A DNA stretch of 64,000 nt from contig JAKSVF010000001.1 of the NCBI GenBank assembly GCA_024408235.1, positions 29,417 to 93,416 on the forward strand. Direction: 5' to 3'. The DNA comes from Bacilli bacterium (lineage in GTDB: Bacteria; Bacillota_I; Bacilli_A; RFN20; CAG-826). How positions within the stretch are numbered: the stretch's first letter is position 1; each line of letters opens with the position of its first letter. Made by a program: the position numbers and the translations under genes. Positions 52,483 through 64,000 of the stretch are shown here, piece by piece. The notes below the pieces were generated by a model that worked only from the letters and a program-made list of their open reading frames with translations, did not search any database and was not told the DNA's origin.

Positions 52483-53484
52483 ATGGAGAATTTAAAAGAA
52501 CGTGTAACGATTTACCAGGTTGCTCAAGCTGCAGGAGTATCTTTAGCAACAGTATCTCGCGTTATTAACAAGCAGGGCAACGTAACTGAAGCTACGAGAA
52601 CGAAGGTTGAGGAGACAATCAAGCGTTTAGGATATAAGCCTTCAGGCTTAGCTCAGGCTCTTGCTACAAACAGAACAACAAACATCGGTATCGTCATTCC
52701 TAGCGCTAACTATGTTTATATCTCAAGCATGTTGAGCGGTGTCTCTGAGGTCGCTAAGGAAAAAGGGTTTGTTCTTACATTATTTACAACAGGTCATTCA
52801 AGAGAAGATGCAATTGCGATGATTGAAAAGGTCATCGTCTCACACGTAGACGGAGCAATTATCTTTGATGATGAACTTGATGAGGCAGATATCGAGAAGA
52901 TTAACTCCTATTCCGTCCCAACAATCGTTATCAATAAGAAAGTTGTTGGCGAAAGAACAGGATGCGTTAACTTCTCATATACGAACGCGCTCGCGAAGCT
53001 TGTTCAGTCATACTACGAAAACGGTGGCGACACTGAGATGACTTTCATCCATCTTCATAACTGTGGTAGATTGTTGAGCCACTGCGAAAGAAGATTCATT
53101 GCAGCTCACCAGGAAATCGGAAAGCCATATCACATCATGAATGTCGATGACTCTTACACAAGAACGTACCGTGATTTCACCAATTATTTCCAGAATCATA
53201 AAAAAGGCTATTACATCGCTTACCGCGACTCAATTGCAGCAGCCGTTGCAAATGCAGCAACCGATAGTGGACTAAGAATTCCAGAAGACATTCAGGTCGT
53301 TTCACTTGTCGGAACAAAATATGCGCATATCTTGAGACCTACATTAACATCAATCGATTTGGATTGGCAGGAAGTTGGCAAGAGATCGATGTACATGTTA
53401 ATTGATTTGATCAACAGAAACCTTGAAGAAAAGTCTTACAAGTTTGATGCAAATCTCGTCATCAGAAACTCAACAAAACACTAA
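52483..53484 (+). CDS. LacI/GalR-family transcriptional regulator
   Basis: The N-terminal HTH is TIYQVAQAAGVSLATVSRVIN. A periplasmic-binding-protein-like sugar domain follows. Confidence 0.92.
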   Translation: MENLKERVTIYQVAQAAGVSLATVSRVINKQGNVTEATRTKVEETIKRLGYKPSGLAQALATNRTTNIGIVIPSANYVYISSMLSGVSEVAKEKGFVLTLFTTGHSREDAIAMIEKVIVSHVDGAIIFDDELDEADIEKINSYSVPTIVINKKVVGERTGCVNFSYTNALAKLVQSYYENGGDTEMTFIHLHNCGRLLSHCERRFIAAHQEIGKPYHIMNVDDSYTRTYRDFTNYFQNHKKGYYIAYRDSIAAAVANAATDSGLRIPEDIQVVSLVGTKYAHILRPTLTSIDLDWQEVGKRSMYMLIDLINRNLEEKSYKFDANLVIRNSTKH

Positions 53485-53612: not shown

Positions 53613-55133
53613 ATGGCTGAGCAAACAAAAACAGCGAAGACATCCGGAATCGGGATGAAAGACAAGCTTGGATACGCTTTCGGAGATGTTGGCTCCTTGA
53701 TGGTATTCGGACTTGTTAACACCTTCCTTCAAGTCTTCTACACCGAAACACTCGGTATAACACCAATCTTGGTCATGATTATCATGATCATCGCTCGTGT
53801 ATGGGACGCGATCAACGACCCTCTATGGGGAAGAATCGTCGACAAGGCGCCATGCAAGAGACCTGGAACAAGATATAAGAGATGGCTTGTTTATTTAGCC
53901 CTCCCTCTTGCTTTATCTTCCATCATCATGTTCTTGAATGTGAGAGGCATCTTTGGAGATAACCCTGCACTCACAGTAACATACGCAACCATTTCTTACA
54001 TTCTCTTCGGCATGCTATATACCGGAACAAATATTCCTTATGGCTCAATGGCTTCAGTCATTACAACAGATGATAAGGAAAGAAACGCATTATCAGTCTT
54101 CCGTTCGGTCGGTTCAACTCTCGGCGGATTTGGCCCTATGGCTTTAAGCTTTGTCTCATATGATAAGGTCCAGAAAGTCGTCGAAGGAGTGGCACAGTTC
54201 GATACTGATGGAAATCCAGTCATGGTATCTCAGTTAAATCCAACAAAACTCATCATTGGCGTTGCAATCTTAGCAGTGCTCTGCGTCGTATTCTCAATTC
54301 TCTGCGCAAAGTTCTCAACGGAGCGTGTTGTTACAGAACCATCTAGAGGAGAAACCAAGAAGAAAGGTGAAACCGCTAGAGTTCTCAAGAATCTTCTCAA
54401 GACCCGCTCATTTGTTGTCATCTCAATTGTCGGCATGCTTTTCTTAGCCGCTCAGATGTTCCAGACAACATACAACTCATACGTATTCATGAAATTCTTC
54501 GGCAGTGGTGGTCTTGCTGCTGTTACTCAGGTATGCCAGTACCTTCCAGTAGCAGTCGTCATGTTCCTTGCCGGGAAACTCGTCAAGAAATTTGGCCGTA
54601 AAGAAATCTGCGCTATCGGACTCTTATTTGTCGCTATCTCATTTGGTGTCTTAGCGATCATCCCAACTACAGTCGTTTCAAGAACAATCTTGATGTATCT
54701 CTTCTTCGTGTTCTCACTCTTAGGAGGTATTGGTAACTCCTTTATCTTCTTAATGATATGGGCTCTTGCTAATGACGCGATTGATGATTATTTCATCAAG
54801 TACAGAAGCCATGATGAAGGTACAGCATATTCAATCTTCTCTTTCATGAGAAAACTTGGCCAGACAATCGCAGCTATCATTGTCAACATCTCTCTTATCG
54901 CAATCGGATACGGAGCTGATGGAACAACCAACTTTGCTCCATCTGAAGCTCAGGCTACATCGATGTACTATCAGTCAATCATCATCCCTGCGGTTTTATC
55001 CCTTGCAATGTTCCTCTTACTCATGTTCCTATACCCTCTTGGAAAACAGGCTGTCTTAGACATGCAGGAGAAGAAGAACGCTATTTATGCGGAAGAAGCT
55101 TCAAATGTCGAAAATGAAGCCGTTAGCGAATAA
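53613..55133 (+). CDS. glycoside-pentoside-hexuronide (GPH):cation symporter family transporter
   Basis: About 12 TM segments. The GPH signature is GYAFGDVG...ARVWDAINDPLWGRIVD. The length is 506 aa. Confidence 0.88.
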   Translation: MAEQTKTAKTSGIGMKDKLGYAFGDVGSLMVFGLVNTFLQVFYTETLGITPILVMIIMIIARVWDAINDPLWGRIVDKAPCKRPGTRYKRWLVYLALPLALSSIIMFLNVRGIFGDNPALTVTYATISYILFGMLYTGTNIPYGSMASVITTDDKERNALSVFRSVGSTLGGFGPMALSFVSYDKVQKVVEGVAQFDTDGNPVMVSQLNPTKLIIGVAILAVLCVVFSILCAKFSTERVVTEPSRGETKKKGETARVLKNLLKTRSFVVISIVGMLFLAAQMFQTTYNSYVFMKFFGSGGLAAVTQVCQYLPVAVVMFLAGKLVKKFGRKEICAIGLLFVAISFGVLAIIPTTVVSRTILMYLFFVFSLLGGIGNSFIFLMIWALANDAIDDYFIKYRSHDEGTAYSIFSFMRKLGQTIAAIIVNISLIAIGYGADGTTNFAPSEAQATSMYYQSIIIPAVLSLAMFLLLMFLYPLGKQAVLDMQEKKNAIYAEEASNVENEAVSE

Positions 55134-55135
55134 AA

Positions 55136-57097
55136 ATGAATAAGCAGCAGCTTGACTCACTTTTCATTTCCTCAATCGAAGATGGGGGAATGCGCATTTC
55201 TCTAGCCCAGGGTAAAGCTAAATACAAAATGAGTCGTGGTTCATTCACGACAAAAGACCATATATTTGATAAGCACAACCTCAAGTTCGTTAATAAAGAG
55301 GGGGACAACTTCCTCTTTAGCGACGGCAAGGTTAACTGTGTCATGTCCTTAGAAAAAGGAGAGAACATTAAACTCCGTTTTAAGGCTGACCCAAAATACA
55401 ATCGCTTCATTTTGAAGATCCCTGCATTTGAGAATGAACACATATATGGATGCGGTGAGCAGTATACACACCTTGATCTCAAGGGGAATAAAGTTAAAAT
55501 CTGGGTTTCAGAACACCAACAAGTAATGAAGATCGCCAAGAAGTTCTTAAGAGAGAAACTCTTTGGTGTAAATCCTGATTACAAAGCCCCATACAAGGCT
55601 CACCAAACCTATTATTCTTCACCAGGCTTTATGTCCAGTGAAAACTATTTTGTCTACTGCCATGAAGACGCTTATGGACAAATCGATTTTGAAAAGAACG
55701 AGACTCTAATTAAATTCCGTCAAGTTCCTCAATCGATATCCATACTTACAGGGGATAATCCAATCGATCTTGTTAAGAAAATTACAAAGCTCGTTAATAT
55801 CCAGCCTAAGCTTCCTGACTTTGTGGGTGAAGGCGCAATAATTGCCACCCAAGGCGGAAGCGATGTTATGCTTGAGAAATACGAGGCCTTAAAAGCTAAA
55901 GGCGGAAAAGTATCTGCAATCTGGTGTCAGGACTGGTCTGGACAGATAGTTACAGAATTTGGCTCTCAGGTCTATTGGAACTGGGAAGTTGATAACAATC
56001 TCTATCATGATTTGAAGGAGATCATTGTCCGCTTAAATAATGAGGGAGTTAAATTCCTTGGGTACATCAATACATTCCTAAAAGAAGACACCCCTTTATA
56101 TAAATATGCGGTAGAGCACGATTATATCGTCAAGAAAAAAGACGGTACACCTTACCTCATTCAGTCTACAACATTTAACGCTGGAATAGTTGATCTCACT
56201 TTCCCTGAAGCATATGAATGGTATAAGGGAATCATCAAAACAAACATGATAGGACTTGGCTTATCTGGATGGATGGCTGACTTTGGTGAGTATCTTCCAA
56301 CAGACTCAGTTGTCCATGGGGGCGATCCTGAAAAGCTTCATAACAAATGGCCAACGCTTTGGGCTAAATGCAACTATGACGCCATTAAAGAGTGCGACAT
56401 GGAGGGCAAGATATTTATCTTCTCTCGCGCTGCATATGGTCATACAGTTCAGTATACGAACTCAATGTGGAATGGTGATCAGCACGTTGATTACTCCGAT
56501 GAATATGGGCTTGGTTCAGTCATCCCTGCGACATTATCAATGGCATGCAGCGGAGTTGGCGTGAACCACAGTGATATCGGCGGATACACGACGGTACTTC
56601 ACATGAAGAGAGACGCAGAATTATTTAGAAGATGGTCTGAGATGAATATCTTTACGCCAGTCTTCCGTTGTCACGAAGGAAATAGGCCAAAGGTCAACGT
56701 TCAGTTCGACAGCGAAGAAGTGGTTGATGAATTTATAAAGAACAGCGATATATTTGCCGCCTTAAAACCATATAGAGATGACGTTCTTAAGGAATATTAT
56801 GAGGATGGCATCCCTTGCAATAGACCTCTCTTCTTCCATTTTGATGAAGATGAGTGTTATACGAATCAAAGAGAATTCATGTTTGGAAGCGAACTGGTCG
56901 TCGCTCCTGTCATGCGTAAAAACGTCACCAAGTTGAAAGTCTATTTGCCTAAAGGCGAGTGGATTGGTCTATTTGATGGCAAGACCTACGAAAGTGGTCA
57001 CATTGAAGTCGAGGCTCCTTTAGGAACGATTCCTGCCTTCTATTTAAAGGGAAGTGTTCACGAGAATCTCTTTAGAGATCTTATAAAGGAAAAATAA
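55136..57097 (+). CDS. GH31 alpha-glycosidase of the YihQ (sulfoquinovosidase) clade
   Basis: Blocks shared with E. coli YihQ as recalled are HIYGCGEQ, IWxQDWSG...FG...WNW, GWMADFGEYLPTD (nucleophile Asp382), WAKCNY, MWNGDQ (acid/base Asp448), HSDIGGYTT and TPVFRCHEGNRP. Confidence 0.85.
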   Translation: MNKQQLDSLFISSIEDGGMRISLAQGKAKYKMSRGSFTTKDHIFDKHNLKFVNKEGDNFLFSDGKVNCVMSLEKGENIKLRFKADPKYNRFILKIPAFENEHIYGCGEQYTHLDLKGNKVKIWVSEHQQVMKIAKKFLREKLFGVNPDYKAPYKAHQTYYSSPGFMSSENYFVYCHEDAYGQIDFEKNETLIKFRQVPQSISILTGDNPIDLVKKITKLVNIQPKLPDFVGEGAIIATQGGSDVMLEKYEALKAKGGKVSAIWCQDWSGQIVTEFGSQVYWNWEVDNNLYHDLKEIIVRLNNEGVKFLGYINTFLKEDTPLYKYAVEHDYIVKKKDGTPYLIQSTTFNAGIVDLTFPEAYEWYKGIIKTNMIGLGLSGWMADFGEYLPTDSVVHGGDPEKLHNKWPTLWAKCNYDAIKECDMEGKIFIFSRAAYGHTVQYTNSMWNGDQHVDYSDEYGLGSVIPATLSMACSGVGVNHSDIGGYTTVLHMKRDAELFRRWSEMNIFTPVFRCHEGNRPKVNVQFDSEEVVDEFIKNSDIFAALKPYRDDVLKEYYEDGIPCNRPLFFHFDEDECYTNQREFMFGSELVVAPVMRKNVTKLKVYLPKGEWIGLFDGKTYESGHIEVEAPLGTIPAFYLKGSVHENLFRDLIKEK

Positions 57098-57098
57098 A

Positions 57099-57779
57099 AT
57101 GAAATACTATTTAGATTCAGCAAAGATCGATGAGATCGATTATGCATACAAATATTTGAAGATTGATGGAGTTACCACCAACCCTAAACACATCCAGAAC
57201 AGCGGAAAGCCATTTTTAACCGCGATTAAAGACATTGCGAATTGGCTTGAAGAGAACCATCTCCAAGGCAAGGATGTCTTCCCTGTCTCGGTCGAGATTA
57301 ATCCTCATTTGGACAACCATCTTGAGATGATTGAAGAAGCAAAAAAGATAGCGGCTATATCGGAGAACTTTGTCATAAAGATTCCATGCAACGTTGAAGG
57401 TTGTAAAGCTGCAAAGCTTTTGGAAGACCAAGGCATCAGAACAAACGTAACATTGGTCTTCTCTCCATCTCAAGCTATTCAGGCTGGAAGAATCGGTGCT
57501 ATGTTCGTTTCTCCATTCATCGGATGGAAAGAGTCTTCTGGTGACGATGGACTTAACTACTTACATCAGATTTCAAACATCTATAAGGAGAAGAACTATA
57601 AGACAGAAATCATCTGTGCTGCAGTTCGTTCCGGCAAGCAGATTGCTGAATGTACGGAGATGGGCGCTGATATCATCACAGCAGGACTCTCTGTTTATGA
57701 AGATTCGATCACAGATCCATGGACCGATTTAGGCCTTAAGAGATTCTGTGACGCTTGGGATAACACCGAAGGTAACTAA
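57099..57779 (+). CDS. class-II transaldolase / fructose-6-phosphate-aldolase-family enzyme (226 aa)
   Basis: Shows YLDSAKIDEI...GVTTNP, the Schiff-base Lys context FVIKIPCNVEG, NVTLVFS and FVSPFIGW. Confidence 0.88.
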   Translation: MKYYLDSAKIDEIDYAYKYLKIDGVTTNPKHIQNSGKPFLTAIKDIANWLEENHLQGKDVFPVSVEINPHLDNHLEMIEEAKKIAAISENFVIKIPCNVEGCKAAKLLEDQGIRTNVTLVFSPSQAIQAGRIGAMFVSPFIGWKESSGDDGLNYLHQISNIYKEKNYKTEIICAAVRSGKQIAECTEMGADIITAGLSVYEDSITDPWTDLGLKRFCDAWDNTEGN

Positions 57780-57780
57780 G

Positions 57781-58617
57781 ATGAAAGTTGGTTTTATTGG
57801 ACTTGGCATAATGGGAATGCCAATGGCCACTAATGTTTCTAGAAAATACGATTTAATTGGATATGATGTCATAGCAAAGGAAGCGCCTTTTGCTATTGCT
57901 AGTTCCATAAAGGAAGTTGTAGAGAATTGCGATGTAATCATCTCAATGGTCCCAAAAAATGAACATGTGCAGTCCGTGTATAGCGAGGCGATGCCATTTA
58001 TCAGAAAAGGACAGACTTTCATAGAAATGTCTACGATTTCGCCATCAGTATCTTCCAAGATTGCTCAAGAAGTTGAGAGCAAAGGAGCGGATATGCTCGA
58101 TTGCCCAGTCGTAAAGAGTCAACCAGCCGCAATTAGCGGTACACTTGGCATTTATGTTGGTGGAAAGAAGGATGTCTTTGAATCTGTAAAAGATGTGTTG
58201 TCCTGTATGGGATGCAACATCATATACATGGGCGGACACGGTGCCGGATTAACAATGAAGATTCTTCATAATGCGTTGGTCGGCCAGATTCAAAATGGTG
58301 TCAACGAGGTGATGTCTATCGCTTCAAAATTAGGAATCGATTTGAATGATTTTGTAAAAGCCATTTCCTATGGCGGGGGACAAAACTTCTACATGGATGG
58401 CAAGGCTAAGAACATCATCTCTCAGGACTACCCAACAGCGTTCTCTATCGCGAACATGCATAAGGATGCTCATTTAGCAAAAGACTTACTAAAAGAAAAC
58501 GATCTCTCATATCCGGGAATCGAAAACACCGCTCGAATCTATGACGAAGCGATGGAAATGGGTTTAGGACGTGAAGATTTCTCGGCAACGTACAAGGTTG
58601 TCAACGGAGGTAAATAA
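57781..58617 (+). CDS. NAD(P)-dependent beta-hydroxyacid dehydrogenase (3-hydroxyisobutyrate dehydrogenase / YihU family)
   Basis: The Rossmann N-terminus is MKVGFIGLGIMGMPMATN. The central block is DCPVVKS (catalytic Lys region), followed by a C-terminal all-helical domain. The start lies 2 nt after the transaldolase stop. Confidence 0.85.
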   Translation: MKVGFIGLGIMGMPMATNVSRKYDLIGYDVIAKEAPFAIASSIKEVVENCDVIISMVPKNEHVQSVYSEAMPFIRKGQTFIEMSTISPSVSSKIAQEVESKGADMLDCPVVKSQPAAISGTLGIYVGGKKDVFESVKDVLSCMGCNIIYMGGHGAGLTMKILHNALVGQIQNGVNEVMSIASKLGIDLNDFVKAISYGGGQNFYMDGKAKNIISQDYPTAFSIANMHKDAHLAKDLLKENDLSYPGIENTARIYDEAMEMGLGREDFSATYKVVNGGK

Positions 58618-58619
58618 AT

Positions 58620-59936
58620 ATGAGAAAAGCTAGAATCGGAGTTTGCTGTTTAACAAGAAAAACATATGACTATCAAACGGCATACGCACTATATCAGGAA
58701 AGAACCGCTGAATTAGTAAAGGACACATCTGTTGACTATTGTGTTTATGGCGAAAACGTTATTGAACCGGAAGATGCTGAAAAGGTTATCCACTATTTTG
58801 AACAGCAGGAAATAGACGCTGTCGTCATCGTCTCGGCCACATTCCATCTTGGACATCTCGCTCTCATGATCAACGACGCCTTGAAGAAACCTATCCTCCT
58901 TTGGGGCTTTGATGAACTCCCATATAACGGTGGAAAGATCAGATTGAATGCAGTGTGCGGCGTTAACTTAAATGCTTCTAACCTTTATAAGGCAGGGGTT
59001 GATAATTACTGTGTCACAATCGGCGATACAATCGATGAGAACTGGGTAAAAGCAATCAAAGCTATGGTCGCTATCCACACAACAAAAATTGGAATTGTCG
59101 GTTATCGCGCACAGGGATTCTTCAATGTCGGAGTTGACGAACTTAACCTCTATAAGAACACAGGTTTGCTCGTCAATCATTATGAGATTAGTGACTTATT
59201 CAAAAAACAGGCTGACGATGAAACCGTTGCTCGTGAAATTGAATGCGTAAAGAGAGAGTGGAATGTAGAAGGCATTAATGATAAGCAAGTTGAATTAGTG
59301 GCTAGACTTGTCGCTTCAACTGAGCTTTTCTTAAAAGAAAAAGGAGTCGATGCTCTTGCAATTCGCTGCTGGCCTGAATTCGCTGCAACCTACGGAATCT
59401 CTCCTTGCGCAATGATGTCTATTCTTCAATCCAGAGGAATTCTTTTGGCATGCGAAGGAGATGTTGAAGCCCTTGTTTCGATGATTGCCGTTAAGGCTTT
59501 AGGCGAACCAACACCATTTATGGCGGATTTATCTCAAGTTAACTTTAAAGATAATTACGCTCTTCTCTGGCATTGTGGCGTTGCGCCATGCAATCTTTGG
59601 GACAAGAAGTGCGTAAGATCTCTTGATACATACTTTGCAGGCGGAAAAGGGGTTACCGCAGGATTCGTCCTCAAAGATGGCGACTTCTCAATTTTCCGTA
59701 TCGACACAGCTAGAGGCAAAACAAGAATATTCTATGAAGAAGGCACAGCTGTTCCGATGGAAAAACTCCTCACAGGTACTTTCGCAAAAGTCCATTTCAA
59801 ACACGATGTCAAAGATGTTCTTGATGTTGTAGTTAATACGGGCGTTGCTCATCACGTCGTTATGGGCTATGTCCAATACGAACCGGTCATTAAGATTCTT
59901 GCTAAGTTGACTGGTTGGGAAATCATCAAGTGCTAA
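58620..59936 (+). CDS. L-fucose/L-arabinose isomerase-like family protein (438 aa)
   Basis: The N-terminal region resembles the flavodoxin-like fold of FucI/AraA-like proteins. The central block is ACEGDVEA and HCG follows. A GGAGG SD precedes the start. The assignment is by overall pattern only. Confidence 0.6.
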   Translation: MRKARIGVCCLTRKTYDYQTAYALYQERTAELVKDTSVDYCVYGENVIEPEDAEKVIHYFEQQEIDAVVIVSATFHLGHLALMINDALKKPILLWGFDELPYNGGKIRLNAVCGVNLNASNLYKAGVDNYCVTIGDTIDENWVKAIKAMVAIHTTKIGIVGYRAQGFFNVGVDELNLYKNTGLLVNHYEISDLFKKQADDETVAREIECVKREWNVEGINDKQVELVARLVASTELFLKEKGVDALAIRCWPEFAATYGISPCAMMSILQSRGILLACEGDVEALVSMIAVKALGEPTPFMADLSQVNFKDNYALLWHCGVAPCNLWDKKCVRSLDTYFAGGKGVTAGFVLKDGDFSIFRIDTARGKTRIFYEEGTAVPMEKLLTGTFAKVHFKHDVKDVLDVVVNTGVAHHVVMGYVQYEPVIKILAKLTGWEIIKC

Positions 59937-59954: not shown

Positions 59955-60671
59955 GTGCCGGTGTGGTTGAGTAAGGCCCTATTTGTTGTAGTCGTCTTTT
60001 TAACAAACATTATCCAAGCGATAACTGGCTTTGCTGGCACTGTTCTTGCCATGCCTTTTTCCATTCAACTTGTTGGTAAGCCATATGCAAAACCGGTGTT
60101 GAATGCCATAGCATTGCTGGTCTGCATTATTGTTGTAGTACGCAACTTTAAGAAGATTGACTGGAAATGCTTATTAGAGATTATCGTTTTCATGGGTATC
60201 GGTATGGTTGCCGGTTTCTTCCTTGAAAAGTATCTCTACTCGAAATGGTTCCTAAAAATATATGGAATCATTATCGTGTTCATCGCTATTTATTACTTCT
60301 TTGTGGATAATCCAATTAAACTTCCTAAACCCATTGGATGGGTGATCATGTTCCTTGCGGGAATTATCCACATGATATTTGTCTCAGGCGGCCCGCTTCT
60401 AATCATTGCTGCCAAGAATAAAATCAAGGATAAAGAAACCTTCAGAGCGACTTTGTCAATGGTATGGGTGATACTCAACTCATCAATACTCGTCACTGAT
60501 GCGGTAGGCGGGAACTTCTCATTGGATCAACTTTGGATTCTCCTCATTATGATTCCAACAGTCGTTATTTCGATTCTTATCGGGAAGTTTGCCCTTAAGA
60601 AAATGTCTAACAACCTTTTCATGAAATTAACTTGTGTTCTCTTATTTATTTCTGGATTCCTAGTCATATGA
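59955..60671 (+). CDS. TauE/SafE-family anion (sulfite/organosulfonate) exporter-like membrane protein
   Basis: About 7-8 TM segments in 238 aa. The family motif ITGFAGTVLAMPF lies in TM1 and a second repeat contains SGGPLLI. The start is a GTG at 59955, 6 nt after a GGAGAG SD. Confidence 0.7.
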   Translation: MPVWLSKALFVVVVFLTNIIQAITGFAGTVLAMPFSIQLVGKPYAKPVLNAIALLVCIIVVVRNFKKIDWKCLLEIIVFMGIGMVAGFFLEKYLYSKWFLKIYGIIIVFIAIYYFFVDNPIKLPKPIGWVIMFLAGIIHMIFVSGGPLLIIAAKNKIKDKETFRATLSMVWVILNSSILVTDAVGGNFSLDQLWILLIMIPTVVISILIGKFALKKMSNNLFMKLTCVLLFISGFLVI

Positions 60672-61654
60672 TCATAATGAATAACCTCCAAAAATCTATA
60701 ATCAGAATCCTTCAGCAAAAGAAGGAATGCTCAAGAAAAGAGCTCTCTTCTTTGCTGTCGGTTACGCCAGCTGCAATCACCCTTGCAACAGGACCTCTTT
60801 TAGATGGCGGATTCATCGAACAATTGCATGAAGTATCTAGAGAAAAAGCAGGCCGAAAAGAGGTTATGTTATCGGTCAATGCAGATTCATTTTTCGCCAT
60901 TGGAATCGACGTAAATGATGATGGCATTTCACTTGTTAAACTTAATGGTCGTCTTGAAGTTACTCAATTAATTGAGTTATCTACTATTAAAGAACTAATC
61001 GTTGCTTTAGATAGGTTCGATTTATCTCTATGCATCGGCATCTCTATTTCACTTAAATCGTTCTATAGCGTTGAGCATATAAATAACGATGTTCAGACTC
61101 TCCTTAACCATTTAAAAACCATCAACGAAAATGTTACGCTGATCAACAATATTGCTGCCCTTGCTTACGCTTACAAAATGCGTAATCCTCAGGATGAGAG
61201 TTTCGTCGTTATTAAATATGGACCAGGCGTTGGCTCTGCATGTTTTATCAAGAACCATTTGCTCCAGTCTCCTTCAAACCCAACATATGAACTCGGAAAG
61301 GTTTTCCTTAATGATCGCCTGGTTACTATTGAAGAGGCTATCGGATATAAGTCGATCAGCGATTCTAAGCCTGAGGCTCTTGCTCTTTTGAGAACGGATG
61401 AAAACGTTAGAGCGCGAGTGCTGAAAGTTCTCGGCTTTACCATCCATAACGTGAACACTCTTTTGCAATTGGATAAGGTCCTTGTTTCTGGAGACATCTT
61501 CAAAGACGATAGAATCTTCAATGAGCTGTTGGAGAAAATACCAATGACTGATGAGGAGAAGGCAAAAGTAACAAGAATGAGTGACTATGCTGAATTGAAT
61601 AAAGCCAAATCCGCACTGACCGCTCAGTACTTATTCTTTAACGGTGATAAGTAA
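60668..61654 (+). CDS. ROK-family transcriptional regulator (degenerate sugar-kinase domain)
   Basis: The N-terminal winged-helix region is IIRILQQKKECSRKELSSLLSVTPAAITLATGPLLDGGFI. It is followed by an ROK/actin-fold-like domain that lacks the CxCGxxGC zinc motif. The start is 60668 (ATGA overlap with the upstream gene) or 60677 (MNNLQKS). Confidence 0.7.
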   Translation: MIIMNNLQKSIIRILQQKKECSRKELSSLLSVTPAAITLATGPLLDGGFIEQLHEVSREKAGRKEVMLSVNADSFFAIGIDVNDDGISLVKLNGRLEVTQLIELSTIKELIVALDRFDLSLCIGISISLKSFYSVEHINNDVQTLLNHLKTINENVTLINNIAALAYAYKMRNPQDESFVVIKYGPGVGSACFIKNHLLQSPSNPTYELGKVFLNDRLVTIEEAIGYKSISDSKPEALALLRTDENVRARVLKVLGFTIHNVNTLLQLDKVLVSGDIFKDDRIFNELLEKIPMTDEEKAKVTRMSDYAELNKAKSALTAQYLFFNGDK

Positions 61655-61684: not shown

Positions 61685-63349
61685 ATGGAACACACTAATT
61701 GGTACAAGGATGCTGTTATCTACCAGATTTATCCACGTTCATTTTGCGACAGGAATGGAGATGGAGTAGGTGATATACCTGGCATTATTTCAAAACTAGA
61801 TTACTTAAAGGACCTCGGAGTGAACTGCGTATGGCTTTCTCCTGTTTACGATTCGCCACAAGAGGACAACGGTTACGATATCGCTAATTACCGTGATATC
61901 TATAAGCCTTTCGGAACTCTTAAGGACTTTACTATGATGCTCGATGAAATGCATAAAAGGGGCATCCGTTTAGTCATGGATTTGGTCGTTAATCACACAT
62001 CCAGCGAACATGAGTGGTTCAAGAGCGCTATTTCGGACAAGAATTCGCCATACCGTGACTATTACATAATCAGAAAAGGTAAAGGCAAAAATGGAAAGAA
62101 GCCACCTAATAACTGGTCCGGATTCTTTGCTGAATCAACTTGGGAAAGGATTGGCGAGAGTGATGAATGGTATTTACATCTCTTCGCAAAAGGCCAGCCT
62201 GACCTCAACTGGGAAAACCCAAAGGTAAGAGAGGAAGTCAAAGATATCTTGAGATATTGGTTAGATATGGGTGTTGATGGCTTTAGATGCGATGTCATAA
62301 CCCTCATTTCCAAGAAACAGGATTTCAAGTCTAGATTCCCGACCCTCGCTTTATGCGGTAAAGACGCTTTTGTAATGGGTCCAAGACTTCATGAATACCT
62401 ACATGACTTATATAAAGACGTCTATGCGAACTATGATTGCATGACAGTCGGAGAAACGGTTCTTTCAAGTCTCGACGATGCCATTAGTCTTGTATCGCCG
62501 GAAAGAGAAGAACTTGATATGGTGTTCAACTTTGACCATACGGATGTCGATAACCATATGGGCGTTAAGTGGCTTTATAGAAAATTCAAACTCACGAACC
62601 TCAAAAAGGCGGTCCGCAAATGGCAAATCGGTTTAAAAGGCAAGGGCTGGAACTCTCTATTCATCGAAAATCATGACCAAAGAAGGTCAGTAGGGCGTTT
62701 CGGAACTGACGACAAGGAATTCCGCGTCATCTCAAGCAAAATGCTCTCAGCGACCTATTTCTTGCTTCAGGGAACGCCATTCATTTACCAGGGTCAAGAA
62801 CTTGGAATGACAAATGGAGATTTCGAATCAATCGATGATGTTGTAGATGTGGAGGCCCATAACGTTTACAAGCTAGGGCAGTCACTCCCAATACTTAAAC
62901 CGTTCCTTAAAAAGACATTAATGTCTTGCAACAGAGATAATGCAAGAACGCCTGTTCAGTGGGATGACTCACGCTATGCAGGATTCTCAGAAGCCAAGCC
63001 TTGGCTAAAGGTGAATAAGAATAAGAGTTTCATCAATGCAGAGGCAGCGATAAAAGATCCTGACTCAACTTACAATTTCTTCAAGAAGATAATTGAATTC
63101 AGAAAAGGAAATGATGTTATTAAAAACGGTGATTACATCGACCTGCTCCCTAGAAACAATTCCGTCTATGCCTATGTTAGAAAACTGGCTGATAAAGAAG
63201 TGGTTGTTATATCTAATTTCACGAATAAGAGACTCTCTTGCAAAATCCTTAAGGATTATAAGAAATACAATATTGTTTTGACAAATTATGTCGAAAAAGA
63301 AGATGATTATCTCAAACCATATGAGACAAGAGTCTTAATTAATTATTAA
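61685..63349 (+). CDS. GH13 oligo-1,6-glucosidase / alpha-glucosidase
   Basis: Shows WYKDAVIYQIYPRSF, DNGYDIANY, VMDLVVNHTS, GFRCDVI, GETV, FIENHDQ and QGTPFIYQGQELGM. Confidence 0.92.
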   Translation: MEHTNWYKDAVIYQIYPRSFCDRNGDGVGDIPGIISKLDYLKDLGVNCVWLSPVYDSPQEDNGYDIANYRDIYKPFGTLKDFTMMLDEMHKRGIRLVMDLVVNHTSSEHEWFKSAISDKNSPYRDYYIIRKGKGKNGKKPPNNWSGFFAESTWERIGESDEWYLHLFAKGQPDLNWENPKVREEVKDILRYWLDMGVDGFRCDVITLISKKQDFKSRFPTLALCGKDAFVMGPRLHEYLHDLYKDVYANYDCMTVGETVLSSLDDAISLVSPEREELDMVFNFDHTDVDNHMGVKWLYRKFKLTNLKKAVRKWQIGLKGKGWNSLFIENHDQRRSVGRFGTDDKEFRVISSKMLSATYFLLQGTPFIYQGQELGMTNGDFESIDDVVDVEAHNVYKLGQSLPILKPFLKKTLMSCNRDNARTPVQWDDSRYAGFSEAKPWLKVNKNKSFINAEAAIKDPDSTYNFFKKIIEFRKGNDVIKNGDYIDLLPRNNSVYAYVRKLADKEVVVISNFTNKRLSCKILKDYKKYNIVLTNYVEKEDDYLKPYETRVLINY

Positions 63350-63372
63350 TGTAGCCAATAGGAGGTACTTTT

Positions 63373-64000
63373 ATGGCATTACATGATACATATGATGGAA
63401 GCTTGGTTCCTAAAAGAACAAAAGGCTTCTACTGCGGTATTGCTCCGTTTAGAGACGCATGCTACACGCTGGTCTCGATGTTCCTTATCGCATTCATCCA
63501 GTACTCTGGCGTTCTTACTAGAGGACTTGGCGCGGGGGCAACTCAGGCCGAGAAGACAGCGATGTTCGTCGCTGCGTATGGCGTTATTTCCGCATTAGTA
63601 ATCGGATATCGAATCTTCGACGCTTTAAATGATCCATTCATGGGCGTCATCATCGAGAAGATTCACTTCAAATCCGGCAAATATAAACCATGGATTCTCC
63701 TTGGCGGCTTAACTAACACAATCGTTGTTCTCGCTCTATTCTGCGGACCAACAATCTTCCCATGGCTTTCAGGCTGGGCATATGTAGCCTGGTTCGCTGT
63801 TTTCTATCTCCTTTGGGGACTGACATTCACAATGAACGACATCGCTTATTGGGGTATGCTTCCATCCCTAACTTCAGAAGAAAAGCAGAGAACACAGATC
63901 ACAACTCTCATGTCCATCTGCTGTTCGCTTGGACAATTCCTTGTAGCAGGACTTGCTCCAATCCTTGCTTCAAGCATGGGCTATGGAATCTATGTTCCGA
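63373..64000 (+). CDS. second GPH-family sugar:cation symporter, 3'-truncated by the window edge (not in the supplied ORF track)
   Basis: I translated this by hand from the ATG at 63373, which follows AGGAGG at 63360-63365. The product reads MALHDTYDGSLVPKRTKGFYCGIAPFRDACYTL...YRIFDALNDPFMGVIIEK...MNDIAYWGMLPSLTSEEKQR. The frame stays open to nt 64000. Both GPH signatures are present (R.FDA.NDP..G and DI.YW.M.P.LT). Confidence 0.85.
   Translation, partial: MALHDTYDGSLVPKRTKGFYCGIAPFRDACYTLVSMFLIAFIQYSGVLTRGLGAGATQAEKTAMFVAAYGVISALVIGYRIFDALNDPFMGVIIEKIHFKSGKYKPWILLGGLTNTIVVLALFCGPTIFPWLSGWAYVAWFAVFYLLWGLTFTMNDIAYWGMLPSLTSEEKQRTQITTLMSICCSLGQFLVAGLAPILASSMGYGIYVP

Follow-up and report, generated by a model that had tools for sequence, protein, structure and literature searches.

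Can a sulfoquinovosidase do without the arginine by which its family is recognized? The question is raised by a gene at 55136..57097 of a 64,000-nucleotide stretch of DNA (contig JAKSVF010000001.1; called the window here) from a gut or rumen Bacilli bacterium. The gene lies on the plus strand, as do all the codons and operon genes given below for the window, and encodes a YihQ-like glycosidase of family GH31 with 653 amino acids in an intact open reading frame (ORF). A first, sequence-only reading of the window had pointed out that this protein has Gln where Escherichia coli YihQ has the Arg that contacts the sulfonate. The sulfonate pocket of YihQ consists of Arg301, Trp304 and Tyr508 with its water (PMC8006165), and a Q/E-RWY motif of sulfoquinovosidases has been described (PMC12780224), hence the first reading was right to treat R-W-Y as a published hallmark. 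Our analysis favours, with moderate confidence that takes in some uncertainty as to the binding residues, a predicted sulfoquinovosidase with a rebuilt, Arg-free sulfonate pocket that serves a sulfo-transaldolase operon at 52.5-61.7 kb.

A YihQ-type enzyme without Arg301

The overall membership of the protein in the YihQ type (GH31_13) is clear. The N-terminal, TIM-barrel and C-terminal domains of GH31 (PF13802, PF01055 and PF21365) all score above the Pfam gathering thresholds, and PRK10426, an equivalog model of NCBIfam derived from E. coli YihQ, gives 698 bits against a cutoff of 553. The best matches among PDB chains using HMMER are 8R56, 5AED, 6PNR and 5OHY, with E between 1e-132 and 2e-153, while the next GH31 structure after these four sulfoquinovosidases reaches 1e-37 only. 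We predicted the structure using AF2 (pLDDT 93, pTM 0.93), and the model matches the four solved sulfoquinovosidases with TM scores of 0.90-0.91, followed by YicI as the next fold with 0.71. Against YihQ, translated from the yih locus of E. coli MG1655, BLASTP gives 38% identity (E 2e-162). The protein is identical in sequence to MCQ2796906.1 of a Bacilli bacterium metagenome-assembled genome (MAG), and its nearest match in a scan taking one genome per species is in a Faecalibacillus MAG, with 81% identity.

We verified R301, Q262, Q288, W304, D405, D472 and Y508 at these positions in the translated YihQ, and both HMMER and BLASTP pair IWCQDWSGQIVTEFGSQVYWNW of the window protein with IWAQDWSGIRMTSFGKRVMWNW of YihQ without a gap. 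The offset between the two proteins is 23 up to Asp382 and 24 beyond it, with a deletion of one residue in between. Gln239 (CAA, 55850-55852), Gln265 (CAG, 55928-55930) and Trp281 (TGG, 55976-55978) thus align with Q262, Q288 and W304, Asp382 (GAC, 56279-56281) with the catalytic nucleophile D405, Asp448 (GAT, 56477-56479) with the general acid/base D472, and Tyr484 (TAC, 56585-56587) with Y508. The slot of Arg301 is taken by Gln278 (CAG, 55967-55969). The sequence-only reading, whose span 55850-56587 runs from codon 239 to codon 484 of the ORF, had arrived at the same gap-free alignment, the same offset and deletion and the same residue pairs, and all of these agree with the genuine YihQ sequence. 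The two catalytic Asp residues are invariant in an alignment of 38 clade members.

The window protein therefore keeps the Q262/Q288 pair, W304 and Y508 of the sulfoquinovosidase signature and lacks its Arg301. There is no basic residue between positions 259 and 290, and K258, H291 and K294 are the only ones within 256-295. The first reading had conceded that a curated alignment might move a neighbouring Arg into the slot; this is ruled out by the lack of any Lys or Arg within 12 residues of Gln278. A sequencing error or a pseudogene is ruled out as well, because the ORF is intact and the Gln is invariant in hundreds of relatives, including all 120 of the closest homologues. Judged by its sequence and context, the protein is not an ordinary sulfoquinovosidase, since it fails the Arg301 feature of the published signature and shows the remaining ones, and it most likely works like one.

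Glutamine is a character of large clades

We searched for homologues in a collection of 5.8 billion proteins. All 120 closest homologues (49-88% identity) have Gln in the 301 slot, within FGxQVxWNW, and all 80 related genome loci, mostly from gut or rumen Firmicutes and Tenericutes, show the signature QQQWDDY. The 120 relatives of a Roseburia copy carry Gln without exception, one of them being found on 640 contigs. When the nearest 150 representatives at 50% clustering are considered, 66 of them read QQQWDDY and 27 read QQRWDDY, the others being minor variants, so that Gln is the majority state in this set. The view of the substitution as an oddity of a single gene is hence not supported. The first reading had also ranked it as the most unusual detail of the island; the substitution is real, and what that reading overlooked is a coupled change at Thr345-Thr346 and the presence of such genes in two different pathways, both described below.

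The clade of the window protein has 100% bootstrap in neighbour-joining trees with 100 bootstraps. We observed at least two further Gln clades linked to sulfoglycolysis, one from Lachnospiraceae reading GCRRTGFGYQVMWNW and one from Oscillospiraceae and Faecalibacterium-like genomes reading EGRRVTAVGKQLxWNW. The clade of the window protein and these two are all old, and a recent substitution within an Arg-type lineage is therefore rejected. The identity to YihQ is 48% for the Roseburia Gln-type protein, 42% for an Agrobacterium-type representative with KERWY and 37% for the window protein. As the Roseburia protein is nearer to YihQ than the KERWY representative is, the Gln clades fall within the sequence range of proven sulfoquinovosidases.

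Further away in the family, a group of longer YihQ-like proteins (representatives P0142-P0200, 700-1100 amino acids) forms a clade of its own with 100% bootstrap, in which the residues at 301 and 368-369 (YihQ numbering) switch repeatedly among R/GG, Q/TD and Q/GG. One Gln/Thr member, P0147 (locus L089), has an N-terminal MopE-like copper-binding domain and no sulfoglycolysis neighbours, and another Gln/Thr member of the longer group, in L088, has a GPH transporter, an SftI-like isomerase and TauE nearby. We also noted that several MAG records labelled Alistipes onderdonkii, Bacteroidales, Prevotellaceae or Roseburia hominis (loci L005, L002, L003 and L012) hold clusters which are near-identical to each other and ~60% identical to the Bacilli operon; their 'cleanbin' taxonomic labels look unreliable there.

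A second pocket change is coupled to the first

We set 28 sequences of the Arg type, from around YihQ, against 103 of the Gln type, and found that only thirteen positions are fixed differently between the two groups. They include R301 to Q, G368 to T, E369 to T, C372 to A and Y337 to F, and two positions in a loop of the N-terminal domain, H127 and K136 in the window numbering. Position 368 is Gly in 100% of the Arg type and Thr in 100% of the Gln type, and position 369 is Glu in 96% of the former and Thr in 98% of the latter. In the window protein Thr345-Thr346 (ACA ACA, 56168-56173, with Thr345 at 56168-70) align with Gly368-Glu369 of YihQ. Since the Arg and the Glu vanish together, the formal charge of positions 301, 368 and 369 is unchanged.

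The pairing between position 301 and positions 368-369 across the family is R/GE in 30 sequences, R/GG in 10, Q/TT in 109, Q/TD in 9, Q/TS in 5 and Q/TG in 5. Among the 150 representatives at 50% clustering, Arg at 301 goes with Gly368 in 42 cases and with another residue in 10, and Gln goes with Gly368 in 5 cases and with another residue in 77, which is Thr or Ser in 68. The odds ratio is 65 with a Fisher p of 1e-19, uncorrected for phylogeny.

Position 368 of YihQ, and thus Thr345, aligns with Trp380 of E. coli YicI, in its KWQPG...DFTNP stretch. We take this Trp to be the same conserved residue as W517 of glucosidase II. In that enzyme W517 touches the 6-OH of the sugar through a water (PMC9061262). 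Thr345 is hence not the Gly of sulfoquinovosidases, yet it is far smaller than the Trp found in YicI and in ordinary GH31 proteins of two of the related loci (L003 and L070).

The third difference lies in the N-terminal domain. A lysine-rich segment specific to the clade, E126-F143 (SEHQQVMKIAKKFLREKLF, 55511..55564), follows the W-x-S-E motif, and takes the place of the shorter GVGRN loop after W-T-S-E, SEQGVGRNKQTYVTWQAD, of the canonical enzymes; Arg157 of YihQ is lost with this loop. The segment includes His127 and Lys136, which are present in 99% and 100% of the 103 Gln-type sequences, where the 28 Arg-type sequences have Asn and Ala. Two aligners disagree on the register of the segment, and the AF2 model has a helix at 130-143 with pLDDT 77-83.

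Gln-type genes occur in two sulfoquinovose pathways

We examined the neighbourhoods of the 80 Gln-type loci. A transaldolase gene is found in 60 of them, a reductase in 62, an isomerase in 60, DUF4867/SftX in 49, TauE in 40 and a GPH transporter in 52. Of the 80, 14 are without any of transaldolase, reductase, isomerase, SftX and TauE, and these are mostly contigs of 3-7 kb. In the Roseburia lenta/NSJ-9 locus the order is GH31, transaldolase, reductase, DUF4867, TauE, SftI and ROK. The lack of DUF4867/SftX in the window may bear on the role of SftX, which is left unassigned in PMC11968277.

Four other Gln-type loci, from Acholeplasmataceae, Tenericutes and Clostridia, are in sulfo-transketolase clusters. 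Three of them (L086, L019 and L020) encode a split transketolase, an RpiB-like isomerase, an aldehyde dehydrogenase and an ADP-forming CoA ligase, and in the fourth (L023) only the transketolase pair and the RpiB-like isomerase are present of these; L086 and L023 further encode an isomerase like SftI. Judging by their gene sets, the sulfo-transaldolase and sulfo-transketolase routes would share only the release and the isomerization of sulfoquinovose, and this is our strongest argument that the Gln-type enzyme would deliver sulfoquinovose. The occurrence of Gln-type genes in both routes also counts against a different C6-substituted glucoside as the substrate. The sequence-only reading had offered three options, namely a different way of binding the sulfonate, another C6-substituted substrate and a relaxed specificity; the evidence favours the first, and the embedding in these pathways argues against the second.

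The aldehyde dehydrogenase of the Acholeplasmataceae locus (L086, 1-9912, a MAG) and its ADP-forming CoA ligase, which has two subunits, point to sulfoacetate as the end product and to a gain of ATP. Genes for a heliorhodopsin, a tocopherol-cyclase-like protein and a photolyase are located just downstream of its GH31 gene.

Neither in the window nor in the loci is an Arg-type YihQ encoded beside the Gln-type gene, and the window has no other GH31 gene. A second canonical sulfoquinovosidase nearby is ruled out, as the extra GH31 genes in L002 (17340-18917), L003 (17336-18958), L030 (7717-8598) and L070 (19183-20778) are distant ordinary members of the family; they lie on the opposite strand, show 24-31% identity and have a WNDNNE-type nucleophile motif. 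Trp is present at the C6-pocket position in those of L003 and L070, and the alignment of the one in L030 stops short of the site.

The operon in the window and the proposed pathway

The GH31 gene comes second in a tight operon, 3 bases after a transporter gene and 2 bases before a transaldolase gene. The transporter (53613..55133) is a glycoside:cation symporter of the GPH family (MFS_2), with 235 bits to TIGR00792 (gph) against a cutoff of 231 and E 6e-68 to Pfam MFS_2. It is 29% identical to the GPH protein of the Priestia aryabhattai sulfo-transaldolase cluster, and is likely the importer of a sulfoquinovosyl glycoside.

The transaldolase (57099..57779, 226 amino acids) resembles the sulfofructose transaldolase SftT. 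It matches BmSF-TAL (8bc3) with E 9e-84, compared with 3e-45 for the best ordinary transaldolase, and is 59% identical to SftT of P. aryabhattai. Its Lys94 is in the place of the Schiff base, and it has Trp143 (57525-27) and Arg177 (57627-29). In such enzymes W138 orients the sulfonate, replacing the Arg that binds phosphate (PMC11659671). The equivalents of D6, E61, K89, N111, S133 and W138 are kept in all 63 transaldolases of the related clusters; the AAxR stretch with R172 was read from six rows only, and the window protein has both the Trp (W143) and the Arg (R177).

The reductase gene (57748..58617) encodes a sulfolactaldehyde reductase-like protein of the SftR type in the HIBADH family, with the Pfam domains NAD_binding_2 and NAD_binding_11. 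Its GTG start as listed overlaps the transaldolase by 32 bases, and the ATG at 57781, two bases past the transaldolase stop, is the probable start, giving the usual MKVGFIGLG beginning of a Rossmann fold. We tried N174 and S178 of YihU as a test for the reductase and rejected it, since it does not discriminate: the Firmicute SftR-type reductases read K-H-V at YihU positions 123, 174 and 178 in the Arg-type and Gln-type clusters alike.

The next gene (58620..59936, 438 amino acids) encodes a sulfoquinovose isomerase-like protein of the Halanaerobium type. The NCBIfam model SftI gives E 6e-59 and 200 bits against a cutoff of 700, and searches of Pfam and PDB gave no match. The protein is 25% identical to SftI of P. 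aryabhattai and 50% identical to its counterpart in a sulfoglycolysis cluster of Halanaerobium, where the counterpart of the reductase shows 53%; the Halanaerobium cluster encodes an Arg-type YihQ, DUF4867, a kinase and an aldolase. There appear two deeply divergent isomerase lineages, ~25% identical, for the same step (58620-59936 in the window, 12202-13542 in L081 and 3864-5180 in L082); the window type is found in 16 of the 80 loci and the SftI type of P. aryabhattai in 44.

The isomerase gene is followed by a TauE/SafE-family anion exporter (59955..60671, Pfam TauE with E 3e-23), which is likely the exporter of dihydroxypropanesulfonate. Two regulators flank the operon. The upstream one is of the LacI family (52483..53484; Pfam LacI and Peripla_BP, with CcpA/RbsR-like NCBIfam matches below cutoff), and a 91% identical protein is encoded at this place in the closest relative locus, L001. 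The downstream one, an ORF of 340 amino acids at 60632..61654, looks like a degenerate ROK/Mlc-like regulator, with weak matches to Mlc, NagC and XylR in PDB (E 0.003-0.03) and no match in the Pfam and NCBIfam searches; its listed TTG start overlaps TauE and the ATG at 60668 is more likely. A normal ROK gene holds the equivalent place in the Roseburia cluster L084. Directly downstream, in the region 61685-64000, is a GH13 gene similar to trehalose-6-phosphate hydrolase (PRK10933, 581 bits against a cutoff of 535), followed by a second GPH/MFS_2 transporter gene cut by the end of the window. The GH13 protein has an 86% identical counterpart in L001.

We propose the following pathway from the gene set. 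The symporter would import a sulfoquinovosyl glycoside, most likely sulfoquinovosyl glycerol, which the GH31 enzyme would hydrolyse to sulfoquinovose with Asp382 as the nucleophile and Asp448 as the acid/base. The isomerase would convert sulfoquinovose to sulfofructose, from which the transaldolase would produce fructose-6-phosphate and sulfolactaldehyde. The latter would be reduced to dihydroxypropanesulfonate and exported by TauE. In the pocket of the GH31 enzyme the sulfonate may be held by neutral hydrogen-bond donors, i.e. the amide of Gln278, the hydroxyls of the two Thr residues, the indole of Trp281 and a water bound to Tyr484. The substitutions, their invariance and coupling and the genomic association are observed, and we infer the substrate, the geometry of the pocket and the hydrogen-bond scheme.

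Weighing the alternatives

We favour a sulfoquinovosidase with an Arg-free pocket because the solved sulfoquinovosidases match the protein far better than other GH31 structures do in both E and TM and the YihQ equivalog cutoff is passed, because the Gln is fixed in the relatives and goes with a coupled change of the pocket, because the partner enzymes are of the sulfonate type and neither the window nor the loci hold another candidate glycosidase, and because YihU and AmSqgH, discussed below, are precedents for binding a sulfonate or working without the Arg of R-W-Y. A number of points weigh against it. The four sulfoquinovosidases that have been solved and assayed are all of the Arg type and none is of the Gln type, and point mutants of YihQ at Arg301, R301Q among them, are reportedly inactive. 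A pocket with Thr, which is bulkier than Gly, may offer less room. A positive charge may have been moved to the replaced loop, where Lys136 and His127 are invariant. The deep order of the trees is weak, with 57% bootstrap for the clade of all Arg-type proteins and 50% for the group of all Gln-type ones. The Gln/Thr state is also seen in distant members without sulfoglycolysis neighbours, which means that the pocket type is no proof of sulfonate binding. Growth on free sulfoquinovose would be possible without this enzyme, so the context alone cannot fix the substrate. Finally, tblastn found no match to DUF4867/SftX at E 0.01 in the whole window, and L001 is likewise without it.

The relocated charge could amount to an explanation of its own, in which the enzyme is a sulfoquinovosidase whose cation has moved, Lys136 or His127 or both reaching into the pocket and Gln278 and the Thr pair only shaping it. 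Such a role would suit the near-complete conservation of the two residues in the Gln type, their absence from the Arg type and the loss of Arg157 together with the GVGRN loop, and the region after W-x-S-E does reach the entrance of the active site in other GH31 enzymes. This loop normally borders the aglycone side rather than C6, though, and the segment is specific to the Gln clades linked to sulfoglycolysis but ambiguous in its register, and is modelled as a helix of moderate confidence only. We regard the moved cation as unlikely on balance.

The other explanations concern the substrate. The enzyme might act on some other alpha-glycoside, be it a neutral one (a glucoside or quinovoside) or one with another substituent at C6, while the downstream enzymes use free sulfoquinovose or an analogue. 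In favour of this, the enzyme lacks the defining Arg, the pocket is narrowed by Thr at the site of Gly, most of the wider family, some proteins without sulfoglycolysis neighbours among them, shows the Gln/Thr state, and the genes directly downstream encode a GH13 alpha-glucosidase-like protein and another GPH transporter. We nevertheless judge it quite improbable given the tight position of the GH31 gene between the transporter and the transaldolase, the recurrence of this pairing in 60 of the 80 loci and in the sulfo-transketolase clusters, the sulfonate hallmarks kept by the transaldolase and the lack of another sulfoquinovosidase candidate. In addition, ordinary GH31 enzymes carry Trp at the position of Thr345, so that the Gln-type pocket is still enlarged relative to that of glucosidases. 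A relaxed enzyme, which cleaves sulfoquinovosides and ordinary alpha-glucosides alike because the charged clamp is gone and discrimination is lowered, seems to us very improbable. A neutral Gln/Thr pocket could form hydrogen bonds with a sulfonate or with a hydroxyl and a water, and in the wider Gln/Thr group some members have sulfoglycolysis genes nearby and others do not; but the strict invariance of Gln/Thr/Thr across clades that are 40-50% identical suggests a pocket that was tuned, not loosened.

Comparison with known systems

The closest known enzymes are the YihQ-type sulfoquinovosidases of GH31_13, E. coli YihQ (5AED/5OHT), BmSQase of Bacillus megaterium (8R56), SftG of E. rectale (6PNR) and the Agrobacterium SQase/SmoI (5OHS/5OHY). 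The window protein shares with them the fold, the length, 35-38% identity, the two catalytic Asp residues, the Q-Q pair, the Trp and the Tyr, and its operon type is common to that of E. rectale SftG and of P. aryabhattai. It differs from them in having Gln/Thr/Thr for Arg301/Gly368/Glu369 and the lysine-rich segment for the GVGRN loop.

One GH31 sulfoquinovosidase without Q/E-RWY, AmSqgH from marine Gammaproteobacteria, has been proven by experiment (PMC12780224). SqgH is ~28% identical to YihQ, is without the connecting beta-sheets, belongs to the sulfo-SDO pathway and is predicted to use R302, T377, K412 and F513, i.e. basic residues remain (PMC12780224). AmSqgH and the window protein are alike in lacking the Arg of R-W-Y, and the latter is a close relative of YihQ that keeps the Trp and the Tyr. 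Compared with SqgH as described, the window protein is unlikely to belong to the SqgH clade, given its 38% identity to YihQ and the retained Trp and Tyr. A sulfonate pocket made without contact to an Arg side chain is known from YihU, which binds the group through Asn174 and Ser178 together with a backbone amide (PMC8006165). We propose the same chemistry for Gln278, Thr345 and Thr346, but the fold and the reaction are unrelated and the likeness is an analogy only. In the NAD-dependent family of sulfoquinovosidases, too, a coherent subgroup differs at a position of the sulfonate pocket and is located in clusters resembling those of sulfoglycolysis. It is the backbone of the altered residue that touches the sulfonate in that case, and the pocket is preserved, whereas the window protein loses a charged side chain.

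A full-text literature search found no description of YihQ variants with Gln. The name 'sulfoquinovosidase' is already assigned to some members of the clade by automatic pipelines (JGI names), so that the annotation as such is not new. What is new is that the hallmark Arg is systematically absent, that its absence is coupled to the change from Gly-Glu to Thr-Thr, and that gut and rumen Firmicutes seem to have mostly this type.

Implications for sulfoquinovose degradation

Sulfoquinovose, a plant sulfo-sugar, is produced at ~10 billion tonnes a year. It serves as a selective nutrient in the gut, where its breakdown feeds the production of hydrogen sulfide. We speculate that the YihQ-like GH31 enzymes have two coupled pocket states, Arg/Gly-Glu and Gln/Thr-Thr, and that the latter may be a second, Arg-independent way of recognizing the sulfonate of sulfoquinovose and the prevailing gateway enzyme of its catabolism in gut and rumen Firmicutes, a proposal for which we see belief and doubt in about equal measure. 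If it is true, the carriers would include Roseburia, Butyrivibrio, Oscillospiraceae, Erysipelotrichales and Acholeplasmataceae, and surveys that require R-W-Y would undercount the sulfoquinovose degraders. At least one survey of human gut genomes has built its search model from the signature residues (PMC8397734). A rarer and more radical version would be that the clusters act on a sulfoquinovose-like sugar not yet known.

Should the Gln-Thr-Thr enzymes not be sulfoquinovosidases, sulfoglycolysis operons would very commonly hold a gene with some other job. If they are active sulfoquinovosidases, they would provide a natural case in which two coupled changes replace a charged sulfonate clamp by neutral hydrogen-bond donors, and the Arg-Trp-Tyr rule would be too narrow. 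The textbook signature of the enzyme probably misses a large natural variant, and the capacity of gut and rumen Firmicutes to open sulfoquinovosyl glycosides would then be wider than reported.

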